64,000 bases of DNA from a virus. The notes below the pieces were generated by a model. That model was not told the DNA's origin, did no database searches, and worked only from the letters and a program-made list of their open reading frames with translations. Shown here one piece after another: positions 26,268-32,189 of this stretch (positions are counted from its first letter, which is position 1; every line of letters begins with the position of its first letter). Where the stretch lies: IMG/VR virus record IMGVR_UViG_3300036820_000004, positions 32,001-96,000 of that record, one strand, 5' to 3'. Both the position numbers and the translations under genes were made by a program.

Positions 26268-26288
26268 CGTTCGATGCTGGAGGTGACC

Positions 26289-29200
26289 ATGGCCTCCCCT
26301 TCGGCCATCCTCGCAGCGAGCAAATCCATGCCCGGCGGGGGCCGGCCGAACCCGGGCCCCCAGCAGCAGCAAGGCCCTTACATCGGCCGCATGTCCCCGC
26401 TGGTGCAGCAACTCAACAATGAGCATGGATATGCGAATACGTATGGCGGCTTTTTGCCGAGGCCGCCGCAGACGTTTACCGATGGCGCATTCAGCCCGTT
26501 CTCGCCGATCATGCCGGTGCCGATTGATGCGCCACCACCTGGCTTCGAGCGGCCAGAACCCCGGCGATTCGCCTACGAGGTAGGTTACAACCTTCCTATC
26601 GGCGACCCGGGCACTGAGGGCGGCTACAAGCTCGCCCCGTTCTCGGTGCTCAAGTCGCTGTCGAAGAACTACTCGATCGCGCGGCGCTGCATCCAGCTAG
26701 TGAAAAAGGAAGTCTGCGGCCTGGACTGGGACATCACCCTCACCTCCCACGCGGAGAAGGCCTACCAGGGTGACCATGAGGCGCAGCGGGACTTCGGGGA
26801 ACGGCGCGCGAAGGCGATGCGGTTTTTCCGCAAGCCGGACCCGAACTACTTCGACTTCACGTCGTGGATGTCGGCGATGCTGGAGCAGATCCTCACCATC
26901 GACGCCCTGAGCTTGTACCTGTGCCCGAAGAAGGGCACCGGGATGGGCCGGGGCCTGCTCGGCTCGGACCTGGACGGCTTGTGGTGCATCGACGGGGCGA
27001 CGATCCGGCCGCTGCTGAACCTGCACGGCGGCATGCCCGTCCCCCCCGCGCCCGCCTACCAGCAGTACGAGTACGGCGTGCCCCGCGCTGATTTCACGAC
27101 GGTGATGGCCGGCCTGGACCTGCCCGAGATCGCCGGCGGGGAACGCGGGGCTTACCGCGGCGACCAGCTGGTCTACCTGCCGATGTGCCCGTTCCCTGAC
27201 TCGCCGTACGGGTTCTCCCCGACCGAGCAGGCGCTGGTCCCGATCCTGACCGGGCTCCGCAAGCAGGGCTACCAGCTGGAGTTCTTCACCGAGGGCACCG
27301 TGCCCGCGGTTTATATTTCACCAGGCGATACATCCATGACTCCCAATCAGGTAAGGGAGCTTCAGGATGCATTGAATGCGGTCGCGAACGACCAGGCATT
27401 TCATTGGAAAGTCATTGTTTTGCCGCCTGGAAGCAAAACAATGCCACAAAAGCCTAATGATATTGTCGACCAGAGCGACGAGTGGATCGCCAACGAGGTC
27501 TGCATGATGTACGGCGTCTCCCCCATGGACGTCGGCATCCTCCCCAAGGTGTCCACCGTGGCCAGCCCGTTCGCGGCGCGGGAAATGGCGCAGGCCAGCC
27601 GCACCAACCAGGAGAAGACCGACACCACGCCGCTGCTGAAGTTCATCGCCTCGATCCCGAACTTCATCCTCCAGATCGTGTGCGACCAGCCGGACATGGA
27701 GTTCTCGTTCGAGGGCATGCGCGAGGTCCAGGACGAGGCGGCGCTGACCGACACCTACGTCAAGCAGGCGCAGATCGGTGTCCGGTCGGTCGACGAGTTC
27801 CGCGACAAGATCGGCCTGCCGCCGTGGGGCCTGGACGAGACGAGCGGCCCGCTGGTGTTCACGCCGATGGGACCGATCCCCCTGTCGGAGGCCGTGTCGA
27901 TCGCGCAGGCGCAGGCACAGGCCAAGGCACTGCCGCCCGGGTCGTCCGGCGCCAAAAAGCCCGCGGTGACCGCGAAGCCGCTGCCGTCCGGCACCGTCAC
28001 CGGGCGGCAGCGCGCCCGCGGCGGTGCCGCGCTCACCCCGGCGCACGCCGCGTCCGAAGGGTTCATGCCCGAACGGTCGGCCAAGAAGCCCTCGGCGGGC
28101 CCGGCTCACGCCCAGGCGTCAGTTAAGGCGACGCTGGCCGAACTGGAGGCCCTGACCCGGCACCTGCGCAAGGGACGCCTGATCTCCACATGGGAAGCCC
28201 GGCATCTCGAGCCCCGCGCGCTGTCGCTGATCGCCGAGCAGATGGCGAAGGGCATGGACGCCGAGCAGGCCGCGGGCCTGGTGAAGACCATCGTCCTGCC
28301 GCCCGCGTCCTACCAGTGGGCAGAGAAGGCCCGGCACGAGCAGTCCCCGCAGGCTCAGATCCAGGCGCAGCAACTGGCCCTGGAGCAGGAGTACACGCGG
28401 CGGATCGAGGCCGCGTTCGCGTCCGCTGCCGCCGCGGCGGCGAAACTCATCGCCGCGTGGGGCGCGGGCACTCTCGCCGTGACTACCGCGGTCCTCGCCG
28501 GGCTCATCGCCGCCGAGTTGCGCAAGGCGCTGACGGCAGCGCTGAGCGGCCTGTGGGCCGACGCGTGGGCGCACGGCGAAGCCGAAGCAGGCGGATCCGC
28601 TGGCGGGGCGCTGGAAGCGTTCCTCGGCACCGTCGGCCGGCAGGTGCAGGAGTGGGTCAGCGAAACCAACGTCGCCGCCATCATCGCCGACCTGCGGGAC
28701 CTGGCCGGCCTGAAACGCAAGGCCCTGATCGCCGCGCTGCTGCGACTCCTCAAGGCAGATGAGCGGGCCGAACTCATCGCTGTCACCGAGCTGATGCGCG
28801 CCTGGAACCAGGCCGTTCTCGCCGTCTGGAAGCTGCTCGGGGTCACCTATAAGGGCTGGCAGACCCGCAACGACGCCAAGGTGTGTTTCCCCGCAGGTAC
28901 GCCCGTGGCGACGCCGACTGGCGAAGTGCCGATCGAGCGGCTAAAGCCCGGGGATCTCGTCATCACGCCAGAGGGGCAGCGTCCCGTCATTGCCACCATG
29001 GAGCGCCTGTACACAGGTGGCCTTACGGTGATTCAGGCGGAAGGCCGGACGGTCACGGCGACTGACAATCACCGGTTCATGACCACCAACGGCTGGCGCA
29101 AGGCTGCCGACCTCAAGCCCGGGGACCTCCTCAAGTCGCTTGAGGACGAGTCGGCAGAGATTGGCAGCGTCGTTCACTTCTCGCTCGCCCAGCCGGATGA

Positions 29201-31529
29201 CGTGCCAGCCGAGGCGGCCAAGTTCCGCATCGCGGATGGCGTCCTTGGCCGCAGTCCGCTGGTGCCAGTACTCGCCGTCGGCCTCAATGGCGACGGCGAG
29301 ACTGGTGAGCGCGAAGTCGATCGTCCAGCGGCTCACGTCAAGTTCGGGCGTGAACTCAAGGCGCAGCAGGGTGAGCGCCTGACGGACGCGGAACTCCAGC
29401 ATGGTCTCGCCCGTAAACTTGCGGTAGCAACTGCGGGAGCAGAACTGCCGATCGGCAGCGGCAAGGCCCGGCTGCGTGCGGAAGGTGACACTGCACGTCT
29501 TGCAGGTGAGGTAGACCGGTGGCCGGCGGCATTCCTCGGAACAGAACCGCCTGTTGAGATGCTTCTCAGCCCGGAAACGCGTTCCGCAGCGGTCACAGTC
29601 GACGTACTTGGTCTCGGCAGTGGTACATGCCCGCGAGCACGTCCTGTAGCGCTCGGCGGTGGACTGGCTGACGGTGAAGTCCTTGCCGCAGACAATGCAG
29701 GTCTTCGTGACCTTGCAACTGTCCTCGTAGCACGCCCGGGAGCAGTGGATCTTGGTCTTGTTATTGAGCCTGCCGGGGCGGAAGACGATGCCGCAGCCCG
29801 GGCAAGTGCGTTCGGCGTGGACGCGCGTAGCGGTGTGATAGCACTCGTTGGAGCAGAAGACTCGGGGGCTCCGGGTGCGCTGAGCACGCACGACGATTTT
29901 GCTGCACTGGGCGCATTGGTAAGTGAATGGCACGGACAGGCTTCCCCCATTCAAGCCATTATCGTTAATCACCCGCTTACAGTTTACAATGTCAGCGTTG
30001 AAACGGAGCCCGTTTACTACGCGAGTCGCTTCCTAGTTCACAATTGCGGGGAATGCAAGGCCAACCAGGCGGCCGGCTCCATTCCCGTCGGTGCGCGTTT
30101 CCCCAGCGGCGACCTGATGCCGCCAGGACATCCGCGCTGCCGGTGTCATGCGACCGCGCCCCCGCCCGGCTGGACACCCCCGGTCACGGCCGCGAACAAG
30201 AAGCGCAAGCGGGGCGTGAACCTGGACGGCGAAGTCGTTCTGGCCGACGCCAAGCCCGGAGACGAGAACCCTGCCGGCGGAGGTGGCCGCACCCTTTACC
30301 CGCACCGCCCTGACGGAACCGAGGTACCCGGGGGTGTTCCCGGCGCGTCTGCGGGAGGGGAGCCGCCGCGCTGGGACGCCTCCACCCCGGAACGCCGCGG
30401 CTACGTCAACACCTACGGCGAGGACGACGGCGACTGGCCTGAGCATGTCCGCGAGGTCGCGCCCAGGCCGGATCAGGACTACCCGGACGGCGGCGGCGAA
30501 GACGAGGACCTGTGGCCGGAAGGCGGCCACGGCACCGCCCAGCCCCCGGTGACGTCGATCGGCGGCGGACCGCGCGGCCGGGCACCAAACGCGGTGGGCA
30601 AGGCCGCCGACGCTGCGGCACAGTTCCTGAAGGACGCGCCGAAGGCCAAGGCCAGCGCGGTGCGCAAGCTCATGCAGGAGAACTTCCCGCCGGACGCCCT
30701 CGCCTGGGTAGGTCGCGCCACATGGGTGGGCCCCGTTGAGATCCCGCTGGAACTCATGGACCTGTCCGGCCGGAAGGGGTGGGCGGCGAGCCACCAGCAG
30801 GGCCACGTCAAGGCCATCGCCCGCGACCTGAAGGCCGGCCGGAAAGTCAACGAGATCATCGGCGTGCTGCGCCCGGGTCACAACCACGTCCGCCTTGTTG
30901 ACGGCAGGCATCGCACCCTGGCCTGCGAGAAGAACAAGATGCCGGTCCGCGGCTACGTCGGGTTCCTGGACCGCGACTCCGACCTGGAAGCGGCGTATGA
31001 CACCTACCACCAGCAGCATCACTTCGGGGACAGCCCGAAGAACAAGGCCGCAGGCTACGACCTGAGCCCGCGGTCGGGCATGATCTCCCTGGACCTGCCG
31101 GAAGGCCTCATCCAGCCGGTGCCCGGCGGCGTGGACGACCACCACGTGACGGTCGCCTACCTCGGCAAGGATGTGGACGATAGGGAGCTGGATATTGTGC
31201 TGGCGCAGGCACGCACCGCGGCCCGGCATGCTCCGGGCCCGCTGGCCGGGATGCTGTCCGGCATCGGCTCATTCCCGCCGTCCGATGGCAGTGACGGCAT
31301 GGTGCCCGCGTTCGTCCCGGCCCGCATCCCCGGCGCGGAGAAGCTCCGCGCCGACCTTGAGCACCTGTCGGCCAGCGAGCACAAGGACTGGGCGCCGCAC
31401 GTCACCCTCGCCTACCTGCAGCCGGGTGAGCCGCTCCCGGCGCCGCATCCCCCGGTGCCGGTGACGTTCACCCACCTGTCAGTGCACCGGGGCGATGAGG
31501 TGTACCGGTTCCCGCTGGGTGGCGAGTGA
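26289..31529 (+). CDS. portal protein fused to MuF head-morphogenesis domain (intein-split), ParB-like domain and 2H-phosphoesterase
   Basis: RBS GGAGG; portal motifs IDGATIRP, SPYGFSP.E, F.EG.VP, DEFR..IGLPP; MuF W.T.ND.KV|C.EC...FPSG...PP.HPRCRC; LVDGRHR; HHVT...PHVT. Confidence 0.9.
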   Translation: MASPSAILAASKSMPGGGRPNPGPQQQQGPYIGRMSPLVQQLNNEHGYANTYGGFLPRPPQTFTDGAFSPFSPIMPVPIDAPPPGFERPEPRRFAYEVGYNLPIGDPGTEGGYKLAPFSVLKSLSKNYSIARRCIQLVKKEVCGLDWDITLTSHAEKAYQGDHEAQRDFGERRAKAMRFFRKPDPNYFDFTSWMSAMLEQILTIDALSLYLCPKKGTGMGRGLLGSDLDGLWCIDGATIRPLLNLHGGMPVPPAPAYQQYEYGVPRADFTTVMAGLDLPEIAGGERGAYRGDQLVYLPMCPFPDSPYGFSPTEQALVPILTGLRKQGYQLEFFTEGTVPAVYISPGDTSMTPNQVRELQDALNAVANDQAFHWKVIVLPPGSKTMPQKPNDIVDQSDEWIANEVCMMYGVSPMDVGILPKVSTVASPFAAREMAQASRTNQEKTDTTPLLKFIASIPNFILQIVCDQPDMEFSFEGMREVQDEAALTDTYVKQAQIGVRSVDEFRDKIGLPPWGLDETSGPLVFTPMGPIPLSEAVSIAQAQAQAKALPPGSSGAKKPAVTAKPLPSGTVTGRQRARGGAALTPAHAASEGFMPERSAKKPSAGPAHAQASVKATLAELEALTRHLRKGRLISTWEARHLEPRALSLIAEQMAKGMDAEQAAGLVKTIVLPPASYQWAEKARHEQSPQAQIQAQQLALEQEYTRRIEAAFASAAAAAAKLIAAWGAGTLAVTTAVLAGLIAAELRKALTAALSGLWADAWAHGEAEAGGSAGGALEAFLGTVGRQVQEWVSETNVAAIIADLRDLAGLKRKALIAALLRLLKADERAELIAVTELMRAWNQAVLAVWKLLGVTYKGWQTRNDAKVCFPAGTPVATPTGEVPIERLKPGDLVITPEGQRPVIATMERLYTGGLTVIQAEGRTVTATDNHRFMTTNGWRKAADLKPGDLLKSLEDESAEIGSVVHFSLAQPDDVPAEAAKFRIADGVLGRSPLVPVLAVGLNGDGETGEREVDRPAAHVKFGRELKAQQGERLTDAELQHGLARKLAVATAGAELPIGSGKARLRAEGDTARLAGEVDRWPAAFLGTEPPVEMLLSPETRSAAVTVDVLGLGSGTCPRARPVALGGGLADGEVLAADNAGLRDLATVLVARPGAVDLGLVIEPAGAEDDAAARASAFGVDARSGVIALVGAEDSGAPGALSTHDDFAALGALVSEWHGQASPIQAIIVNHPLTVYNVSVETEPVYYASRFLVHNCGECKANQAAGSIPVGARFPSGDLMPPGHPRCRCHATAPPPGWTPPVTAANKKRKRGVNLDGEVVLADAKPGDENPAGGGGRTLYPHRPDGTEVPGGVPGASAGGEPPRWDASTPERRGYVNTYGEDDGDWPEHVREVAPRPDQDYPDGGGEDEDLWPEGGHGTAQPPVTSIGGGPRGRAPNAVGKAADAAAQFLKDAPKAKASAVRKLMQENFPPDALAWVGRATWVGPVEIPLELMDLSGRKGWAASHQQGHVKAIARDLKAGRKVNEIIGVLRPGHNHVRLVDGRHRTLACEKNKMPVRGYVGFLDRDSDLEAAYDTYHQQHHFGDSPKNKAAGYDLSPRSGMISLDLPEGLIQPVPGGVDDHHVTVAYLGKDVDDRELDIVLAQARTAARHAPGPLAGMLSGIGSFPPSDGSDGMVPAFVPARIPGAEKLRADLEHLSASEHKDWAPHVTLAYLQPGEPLPAPHPPVPVTFTHLSVHRGDEVYRFPLGGE
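28884..30044 (+). mobile_element. intein (387 aa) in MuF Zn motif, no in-frame endonuclease
   Basis: Starts CFPAGTPV; block B TATDNHRF; GW..A.DL.PGD; block F VYNVSVE; ends LVHN|C. Confidence 0.9.
28941..29933 (-). CDS. Zn-finger-repeat DUF559/Vsr-like endonuclease, antisense inside the intein
   Basis: Five CxxC...CSxxC units, then E...IDF...VAIEADGEYWH...D..RD..L...GW.VIR; SD-like GGGGGAAG 7 nt before GTG 29933. Confidence 0.85.
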   Translation of the reverse strand: MPFTYQCAQCSKIVVRAQRTRSPRVFCSNECYHTATRVHAERTCPGCGIVFRPGRLNNKTKIHCSRACYEDSCKVTKTCIVCGKDFTVSQSTAERYRTCSRACTTAETKYVDCDRCGTRFRAEKHLNRRFCSEECRRPPVYLTCKTCSVTFRTQPGLAAADRQFCSRSCYRKFTGETMLEFRVRQALTLLRLEFTPELDVSRWTIDFALTSLAVAIEADGEYWHQRTAAKDAIRDAELGRLGWHVIRLGEREVNDAANLCRLVLKRLEEVPGLEVGSLAPAVGGHEPVIVSRRDRPAFRLNHRKATCVQALHGGNDGTLPLWRDDEIPGL

Positions 31530-31840: not shown

Positions 31841-32189
31841 CCGGGTCACCCTCACCGCAGCCGAGCTAGCCGGGCTGGGCAAGTCGGCCGAGACCCCGGT
31901 CGTTTCCACGGTGCATCACCCGCTCGGCACTCACGGGCTCTGGCACACGCCCGGCAAGAAGGTGCCGGAGATGCAGCAACTCCCGGCGTATCACCAGAAC
32001 ACAGCGCGGGCGCTCATGCGCGACGAAGGCATGAGCGAGTCGCAGGCCATAGCGACTGCGATCAACGCCATCCGCGAATGGAAGGCAGGCCGCGCGTTCG
32101 GCGGCCGGGTGAAGGTGACACCGGAAGTGCAGGCCGCCGCGGCACGGGCCGACGCCGAGTTCGAACGGCTGCGTGCCGCCCATCACTGA
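31833..32189 (+). CDS. putative head-associated protein
   Basis: LPAY.QN.A.AL....MSESQAIATA motif; located between portal and protease. Confidence 0.6.
   Translation: MASRVTLTAAELAGLGKSAETPVVSTVHHPLGTHGLWHTPGKKVPEMQQLPAYHQNTARALMRDEGMSESQAIATAINAIREWKAGRAFGGRVKVTPEVQAAAARADAEFERLRAAHH

Follow-up and report, generated by a model that had tools for sequence, protein, structure and literature searches.

A viral MuF intein with a putative homing endonuclease gene on the opposite strand, in codon register

The intein-split MuF gene and the overlapping endonuclease gene

Inteins are usually taught as single polypeptides that carry their endonuclease as an in-frame domain. Here we describe an intein in a viral MuF gene whose middle is overlapped, on the opposite strand, by a candidate homing endonuclease gene. 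It lies in a 64,000-nucleotide stretch of DNA from an uncultured soil virus (the window; positions 32,001 to 96,000 of IMG/VR record IMGVR_UViG_3300036820_000004, a 119,753-base metagenomic virus record with an estimated completeness of 91%; the one sequencing run that contains the stretch is from a soil metagenome), and all coordinates below are those of the window. According to the list of open reading frames (ORFs), its translation and Pfam, the host gene (26274..31529, plus strand) encodes a 1751-amino-acid (aa) precursor in which a portal protein is fused to MuF, with matches to Phage_portal (E = 2.9e-16), Hint_2 (1.8e-10, above the family's cutoff) and Intein_splicing. This single ORF runs uninterrupted through a class-1 intein of 387 aa (28884..30044, plus strand; host aa 871-1257), recognized by its C1, T60xxH63, VYN block, terminal HN and +1 Cys, which interrupts the MuF zinc motif (D-x-[KR]-V / CxxC...HxxCRC) between the flanks ...DAKV and CGEC.... 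An earlier note on this DNA, made from the letters alone, had described a 387-aa intein with intact splicing blocks splitting this motif, and its coordinates, C1, TxxH, VYN, HN and +1 Cys were all reproduced. Comparison of junctions places the N-extein side of the insertion site, which is presumed also to be the homing site, at 28872..28883 (plus strand, encoding ...DAKV) and the C-extein side, the CxxC of the MuF zinc motif (CGEC), at 30045..30056 (plus strand).

Both ends of the intein were modeled with confidence as parts of a Hint domain. AlphaFold gave the N-terminal part (28884..29198, plus strand; intein aa 1-105) a predicted local distance difference test score (pLDDT) of 95-98 over residues 1-100, and the C-terminal part (29952..30044, plus strand; aa 357-387, from the VYN block to HN) a pLDDT of 91-97 over residues 361-387. 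In an alignment of 53 inteins (A4), C1, T60, H63 and N387 are invariant, and at least 90% of sequences keep V367, A380, V385 and H386. Foldseek searches with the intein model returned 2lwy as the best match and also 6qaz, the gp41-1 intein (TMt 0.68, root-mean-square deviation (rmsd) 2.2), among matches to mini-inteins and BIL domains with E values down to 1e-7. Between the two Hint parts lies a filler segment (29199..29951, plus strand; aa 106-356) that is the antisense read-through of the endonuclease gene. As had been claimed of this position, its plus frame holds neither a stop nor a recognizable motif: it is open from one Hint part to the other, a Pfam search of the plus frame over 29190-29850 returned 0 families at E<=10, and AlphaFold predicts a disordered segment lacking secondary structure (pLDDT 33-51, no strands) even when supplied with a 53-row alignment.

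The candidate homing endonuclease gene occupies 28941..29933 on the minus strand, with 330 codons and a TAG stop read from a GTG at 29933; an alternative GTG lies at 29972, and the ORF counted from that first GTG spans 28941-29972 (343 aa). The endonuclease and host frames share the same triplets, that is, they are in codon register, and the first Cys codon of the endonuclease falls 43 codons from the C-terminal end of the intein while its stop (28941-28943) falls at intein codon 20, within the N-terminal Hint coding region. Register and stop position both stand as the earlier note gave them, as do the start at GTG 29933 and its ribosome-binding site: GGGGGAAG can be read directly at 29941..29948 (minus strand), where it would serve as a Shine-Dalgarno-like element with a 7-nt spacer to this GTG, and the start fits the MPFTYEC of homologues, an equivalent of which is found in 7 of the 19 homologues in one alignment (A1). 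A similar GAGGGGAA stands ahead of the GTG of a free-standing relative (L005). In 50 relatives with a candidate start, which a script picked as the nearest start codon upstream of the first CxxC, the candidate mostly lies six codons upstream of the first Cys, as in the window, and it is an ATG in 39. Several relatives have a TCAGGAG Shine-Dalgarno-like site ahead of their endonuclease start, and its complement codes for a conserved L-L-T-[DE] in the host frame.

The encoded protein consists of five zinc-finger units followed by a DUF559/Vsr-like nuclease, an architecture on which the earlier reading and our regular-expression count and Pfam search agree. The five fingers (29418..29918, minus strand; residues 7-169) have the form CxxC-(16-19 residues)-CxxxC, mostly with (F)CSxxC, a pattern that may be of the treble-clef FCS/MYM/YacG type. 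Their Cys columns are invariant or at least 90% conserved in two alignments (A1 and A3) and they were modeled with a pLDDT >90. When the half with the fingers was searched by itself against Pfam, no match reached significance (best E 0.17), and profile searches matched 2l8e, 2w0t, 2das and 1lv3 weakly (E 0.013-0.073). The finger region also matches PHROG families named HNH endonuclease (phrog_1271, 4.2e-16), which means that the module recurs in other phage nucleases, and we presume that the array is a DNA-recognition module. If it does have a DNA-binding role, a nuclease with this five-unit array would amount to a natural zinc-finger nuclease whose recognition code could be worth solving.

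The nuclease domain (29130..29417, minus strand) is EDxHD/Vsr-like and matches Pfam DUF559 (2.4e-9; 37.5 bits vs a cutoff of 20.6), along with MTES_1575 and, weakly, Vsr. Profile searches recovered the homing endonuclease I-Bth0305I (3r3p, 1.6e-17) and Vsr (1cw0, 1.2e-4), and the same order was obtained with Foldseek, in which the best structural match was the catalytic domain of I-Bth0305I (3r3p; TMt 0.79-0.81, rmsd 2.4 Å over 94 columns) and E. coli Vsr was a weaker second. Across the 53 sequences of alignment A3, which has the window protein as its reference row and omits 19 loci whose tblastn range ran through a natural stop, E180, E217, D219, W223 and H224 never vary, and at least 90% of the sequences keep D206 and D231. 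Residues of the E180/D206/E217/D219/H224/D231 type can be read as a composite EDxHD catalytic set if letters are assigned through PMC3239194 and an alignment with Vsr. The few conserved residues of the intein filler on the other strand (VPV with an invariant Pro, around P128 in A4) arise as the complement of the invariant Y-W-H of the nuclease, and an EVN-like patch of the filler is likewise the reverse-complement shadow of a motif neighboring this YWH.

Modeled with a 53-row alignment, the endonuclease has a mean pLDDT of 85.9, with residues 1-275 mostly >90. The C-terminal tail (28944..29129, minus strand; aa 269-330, 62 residues), which is antisense to the N-terminal Hint coding region, has a pLDDT of 38-54 and is probably an extension with no function. 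The ORF is shorter in most relatives, ending a median of 68 codons inside the intein vs 20 in the window, and in low-GC relatives it ends directly after the nuclease domain, so that the window's long tail looks like a by-product of high GC. Homologues of the endonuclease number 43 at E<=1e-3; the best (P0003) is 79% identical, and its conserved tail suggests that it is likewise embedded in an intein.

Three lines of evidence, namely codon-position GC, protein families and folds, and conservation, agree in the choice of strand. GC content at the third position of the plus frame (GC3) is ~0.9 outside the intein and 0.36-0.68 over ~29154-29933, and across 29154-29933 the third position of the minus frame (equal to GC1 of the plus frame) has a GC content of 0.78-0.90. 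Taken over all pairs of 53 genes, the finger and nuclease regions have an amino acid identity of 0.38-0.39 in the endonuclease frame vs 0.20-0.21 in the host frame, and nucleotide differences there amount to 0.66-0.67 at position 3 of endonuclease codons vs 0.42-0.51 at the first two positions. The pattern is reversed in the tail and in the upstream part, both of which overlap Hint, and there indicates selection on the plus frame. We counted differences by codon position because synonymous sites are saturated, protein identity to the nearest locus for which DNA was available being only 58%. In the middle of the intein it is the minus frame that is under selection and in its Hint ends the plus frame, which bears on the comparison of selection per strand that had been raised for homologous inteins; and codon-position GC, substitution patterns, fold and disorder all uphold the earlier claim that an inverted endonuclease gene sits inside the intein with the plus frame as filler.

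Embedded and free-standing members of the family

We surveyed the family by pattern scans with its alignment, using the best 80 of 283 viral-contig relatives together with 47 loci in prokaryote genomes or metagenome-assembled genomes (MAGs). The 90 loci analyzed comprise the 80 viral loci and 10 from genomes, chosen for their long matches; the other 37 genome loci (L093-L129), which match in the nuclease domain only, were set aside. Removal of 19 of the 90 as near-duplicates gave 71 non-redundant loci. A gene was called embedded when an open frame on the opposite strand spans it wholly and reaches at least 150 nt past both of its ends. This is the case at 52 of the 71 loci, and in all 52 the two frames are in codon register. 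The 52 host frames have one architecture, in which a MuF N-extein ending in D-x-[KR]-V is followed by the intein and then by CxxC...P-x-H-x-x-C-R-C; Pfam recognized Intein_splicing in 49, Hint_2 in 40, Phage_Mu_F in 20 and a portal domain in 8. Their inteins are 356-467 aa long and keep C1, the terminal Asn and the +1 Cys in 52/52 and the penultimate His in 51/52. Contigs carrying embedded copies range from 32 to 73% GC, and family records span Chloroflexota, Bacillota, Actinomycetota and one Methanothrix MAG, an assignment that is to be read with the unreliable MAG binning of viral contigs in mind. The portal domain in 8 of the 52 related frames means that portal-MuF fusions like that of the window recur. 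At its C-terminus, the window's host gene also has a 2H-phosphoesterase-like domain (Pfam 2_5_RNA_ligase2, E 2.4e-5, under that family's cutoff).

When two genes run antisense in register, the only endonuclease codons that yield stops in the host frame are TTA, CTA and TCA. Across the window's endonuclease gene the remaining plus and minus frames hold 4-16 stops, and the in-register antisense frame is the one in which both genes stay open by avoiding three codons, all of which have synonyms. We set the expected number of these forbidden codons from the Leu and Ser codon usage of each locus's own exteins, L084 having no background ORF. Summed over 53 embedded genes, 0 were observed vs 279 expected, and the chance of finding none at a single locus ranges from 1.6e-8 (GC 0.34) to ~0.6 (GC 0.73). 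Genes that have no host frame to keep open do use them: there are 68 in the 13 free-standing genes described below, for which ~39 were expected, and the split-intein locus L047 and the same-strand locus L071 contain 15 and 20, respectively. At the level of sequence, these counts show that the family actively avoids TTA, CTA and TCA when embedded. Since avoidance is family-wide and includes low-GC members, the significance of the open frame comes from the family and not from the window. In this family, alternating selection on a pair of overlapping genes can be cleanly quantified, and the rule of no TTA, CTA or TCA can serve to find similar elements and to distinguish copies that are embedded from those that are free.

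The 19 loci with no spanning frame were searched with N-extein, N-terminal Hint and C-terminal Hint/C-extein profiles and inspected in ORF maps. At 13 of them (L004, L005, L030, L032, L035, L043, L050, L055, L074, L078, L080, L084 and L089) the endonuclease gene is free-standing and convergent to a MuF gene that has no intein. The 3' ends of the two genes abut, overlap or lie within a few tens of nucleotides of each other in 12 of the 13, the gap at L078 being ~340 nt, and the uninterrupted MuF zinc motif lies ~70-450 nt from the end of the endonuclease gene. One of these loci (L089) sits in a Micromonospora genome contig, presumably as part of a prophage. Free-standing homing endonuclease genes that adjoin their targets are familiar from phages such as T4 and cyanophage (intronless or collaborative homing). 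The 13 relatives just past the 3' end of an intein-less MuF resemble that arrangement, whereas the window copy lies inside the intein.

Two loci show other layouts. At L047 the MuF gene is fractured into an N-extein/N-terminal Hint ORF and a C-terminal Hint/C-extein ORF (L047:3501-6839, minus strand) with the endonuclease gene between them (L047:4560-5867, plus strand), and the host frame has more than 15 stops between the Hint halves; judged by its ORFs, the locus appears to be this same element with a naturally split intein. At L071 the same MuF intein (L071:3810-6545, plus strand) holds an endonuclease on the same strand in the +1 frame (L071:4720-6165, plus strand), with ~ten fingers in a 482-aa open frame, and both frames are open for ~480 codons at 46% GC. 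Four loci (L017, L076, L079 and L082) were left unassigned as to layout.

A quick maximum-likelihood tree was built from 71 endonucleases, from which L080 was dropped by a motif filter. Free-standing genes are scattered among embedded ones on this tree, with at least 11 changes of state, at least 7 of which are forced (SH-aLRT >=95). The window groups with the embedded L003, inside a supported set of seven that includes the free-standing L004, L005 and L032. The tree is unrooted and 32 of its 68 forks are unresolved, so that genes may have passed from free to embedded or the other way. Forbidden codons are below expectation in two free-standing genes, L035 (4 vs 11.8) and L050 (2 vs 4.4), which on this count look like recent escapees from the embedded state.

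We tentatively suggest, with slightly less than even confidence, that these loci represent one widespread lineage of zinc-finger EDxHD nucleases specialized on phage MuF, which would alternate between lodging antisense and in register within an intein, with purging of codons, and standing free and convergent just past the stop of an intein-less MuF. The family would then form a natural series of homing genes and inteins joining or parting, and in-register antisense placement would be the general means by which a protein-coding splicing element can house a foreign gene. How homing endonucleases and self-splicing elements came to be united is an old question to which the relatives that stand free next to MuF genes with no intein are relevant, and the comparative data set makes the origin of such intein-endonuclease partnerships testable.

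Probable homing and the competing explanations

In IMG/VR, the two closest relatives of the window's MuF N-extein are L132 (74% identity) and L133 (60%), compared over 300 aa, and neither has the intein. In both, ...DAKV runs straight into CxxC, and no endonuclease-like ORF was found within 3 kb. The DNA flanking the insertion site is identical to the window at 28/30 nt to the left and 24/30 nt to the right in L132 and at 25/30 and 18/30 nt, respectively, in L133, and among 53 intein-bearing alleles the TG of the first Cys codon of the C-extein junction is kept in 98-100% and that of the second in 96%. The closest solved relative of the nuclease, I-Bth0305I, is reported to cut only the uninterrupted allele of its host gene, beside the intron insertion site (PMC3239194). 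The presence of the intein in the window and its absence from L132 and L133, together with the behavior of I-Bth0305I, support homing but are not proof of it. A pseudo-palindromic target like that of I-Bth0305I was not seen by eye in the flanks.

We consider it probable that the window holds a mobile intein whose homing endonuclease is encoded by a separate gene on the opposite strand, in codon register. In such a system, the precursor would be translated through the ~250-residue filler, which would be looped out as a disordered tether at the usual point of endonuclease insertion, and the Hint halves would then associate, fold and splice the filler away. The endonuclease would be made from its own antisense message, from the Shine-Dalgarno-like site and GTG 29933. 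Its finger array would bind DNA, intein-less MuF alleles would be cut at or near the site coding for D-x-[KR]-V / CxxC, and repair from the intein-bearing genome during co-infection would copy intein and gene together. Placing the endonuclease on the opposite strand would separate the two selfish functions, uncoupling the timing and amount of nuclease from the late, high-level head operon and keeping nuclease out of the virion precursor, at the price that the host must translate ~250 residues of meaningless filler kept only for the sake of an open frame.

Several points weigh against this interpretation. Only 1.57 forbidden codons are expected in the window, with a chance of ~0.21 of finding none, and the open plus frame could thus be due to chance at 68% GC. 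The earlier explanation of the open frame, the rarity of TTA, CTA and TCA at high GC, accordingly suffices for the window; it fails for the family, in which avoidance is active. The zero count for the family is itself partly circular, the embedded class being defined by an open antisense frame, and independent support comes only from the Hint and MuF matches, the low-GC members and the free-standing controls. A scan for sigma-70 consensus sites over 28700-30300 found 0 promoters, and the DNA upstream of the gene in the closest relatives is unconserved except where it codes for residues of the Hint blocks. An unstructured insert of ~250 residues might slow or prevent splicing, an antisense gene meets transcription head-on from the late operon, and the distribution of homologues could result from vertical descent with losses. 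Target specificity, finally, is pure inference.

Some of these points would also be expected if the element were a relic, that is, if the intein splices but the antisense endonuclease is silent or inactive and carried vertically, both frames having stayed open largely because TTA, CTA, TCA and other stop-generating codons are rare at 68% GC. The ~0.21 chance of an open frame in the window and the empty promoter scan would fit such a relic, as would the statement in a preprint on phage inteins (bioRxiv 10.1101/2025.01.02.630785) that some VSR-like cases look vertically inherited. Yet the window protein retains every zinc and catalytic position that is invariant in the family (reference row of A3), its fold is predicted with confidence to residue 275, codon bias in the middle of the intein tracks the minus strand, a bias that a long-dead gene would lose, and the absence of the intein from the closest MuF relatives fits recent gain or loss. 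We therefore regard a relic as unlikely. It is also conceivable, if a little harder to credit, that the nuclease is active in a job other than homing, either as a weapon turned on other phages in the same cell or on host DNA or through an antisense transcript that regulates MuF, with the intein as a safe harbor. The 13 free-standing relatives beside intein-less MuF genes indicate that the nuclease needs no intein, and Pfam names and PDB entries 1cw0 and 4oq2 indicate that domains of the DUF559/Vsr-like type are found in repair and restriction as well. Against this, the near-exclusive linkage of the nuclease to one gene (MuF) and one site, whether embedded or adjacent, is a signature of site-specific homing, a nuclease that cuts the MuF of competitors and is copied in at repair is a homing endonuclease, and the closest solved relative is a proven one.

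Long in-register antisense ORFs are common artefacts of GC-rich DNA, and the minus ORF could in principle be such a shadow of a GC-rich gene, the middle of the plus strand then being a real but unrecognized intein domain. The plus frame is indeed open, but the evidence already contradicts this reading: the minus ORF scores above a curated Pfam cutoff, has 43 homologues and encodes a protein that folds confidently and matches a solved endonuclease, whereas the middle of the plus frame belongs to no family, is predicted to be disordered and has the wrong codon-position GC, and its conserved VPV is merely the complement of the nuclease's YWH. We consider this explanation extremely improbable, and the interpretation that we favor remains that of a homing endonuclease gene lodged antisense in a mobile intein.

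How such a gene would be transcribed is a separate matter. The AT-rich, promoter-like stretch that the earlier note placed upstream of the gene did not hold up: 29750-30049 is merely less GC-rich (0.58), although it contains GATAAT at 29963-29958, and the sigma-70 scan was empty. A terminator consensus scan found 1 terminator-like site, on the plus strand, which is within chance. No common promoter motif was found upstream of the gene in the window, L003, L006, the free-standing L004, L005 and L032, and L017. In single relatives, boxes can be seen near the candidate start: TGATATAAT-like extended -10 boxes within 20 nt of it in L063, L072, L087 and L090, a weaker TGATATAGT within 20 nt in L048, and TAnnnT-like boxes in L068, L069, L073, L077 and L081; all of these boxes were noted without statistics. 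Such -10-like boxes near candidate starts are hints, at the level of motifs, of leaderless transcripts or ones with very short leaders.

Relation to described systems

The earlier note had taken the layout to be undescribed, and this does not hold. In a survey of PhagesDB, Gosselin, Arsenault and Gogarten (bioRxiv 10.1101/2025.01.02.630785) report 63 non-canonical cases, among them VSR-like endonucleases antisense within full actinobacteriophage inteins whose in-frame middles are unstructured, and they propose that such elements originated when a free-standing endonuclease gene invaded an intein. The window resembles the inteins of that preprint in that a Vsr-like endonuclease lies antisense between the splicing blocks of a contiguous intein with a structureless in-frame middle; the preprint's Vsr core also matches 1CW0 and, by HHpred, 3R3P, and minor capsid (MuF) proteins are among its non-canonical hosts. 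Unlike the PhagesDB phages of the preprint, the window comes from an uncultured virus. A full-text literature search found the layout described in no other paper. The same-strand, out-of-frame layout is given in the preprint only for an endonuclease VII-like gene, and for anti-sense LAGLIDADG ORFs (Synechocystis DnaX) it cites Gorbalenya 1998 and Gogarten 2002; those inteins share with the window an ORF on the opposite strand but carry another family of nuclease.

The layout, a rare one, is thus already in print and the window element adds a member to it. A term search of the preprint's main text turned up neither the name MuF nor anything on codon register or usage, zinc, promoters, metagenomes or free-standing copies next to the host gene. 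Points made here at the level of the family, namely its occurrence outside actinophages, the strict register and the purging of codons, the array of fingers (five units in the window, ~ten in L071), free-standing copies beside intein-less MuF genes and the same-strand variant, are therefore possibly new, and the preprint's supplements (clusters 60 and 91, host proteins) may hold some of them.

Two other described systems come close in parts. I-Bth0305I (PMC3239194) shares with the window protein an N-terminal DNA-binding region, a C-terminal Vsr-like catalytic domain and a tie to a self-splicing element. It is encoded on the same strand within a group I intron of a phage recA gene, whereas the window gene is antisense in an intein, and its N-terminus is of the NUMOD/helix-turn-helix type, whereas the window protein has five zinc fingers and not a NUMOD. 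Vsr-like endonuclease genes have also been reported between the halves of split inteins (Dassa et al. 2009, PMC2677866). Those fractured genes are like the window in having a Vsr-like endonuclease as a separate ORF at the endonuclease position of an intein, but they divide the host gene into two ORFs, as L047 does, where the window has one uninterrupted host ORF.

Searches of named phages returned only distant relatives. A blastn search in distant mode with 28600-30300 gave no match in the phage collection, and a tblastn search with the endonuclease against 50,697 phage records gave no MuF-intein relative and 18 weak matches at ~25% identity, which fall in a Mycobacterium phage methylase region and in the Microcystis phage MaeS. 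One of the distant relatives (L001, Mycobacterium phage Seagreen, genes 72-74; ~25% identity) is annotated 'DNA endonuclease (vsr)'. In L001 and in L002 (phage Camster, genes 54-57), the endonuclease relative runs opposite to two DNA methyltransferase ORFs, one large and one small, that flank it. Where genes overlap as in the window, a gene caller will either miss the endonuclease by choosing the host ORF or pick a shadow ORF. The latter seems to have happened in Camster, where hypothetical gene 55, on the methylase strand over the same DNA, may be a shadow ORF of the endonuclease gene.

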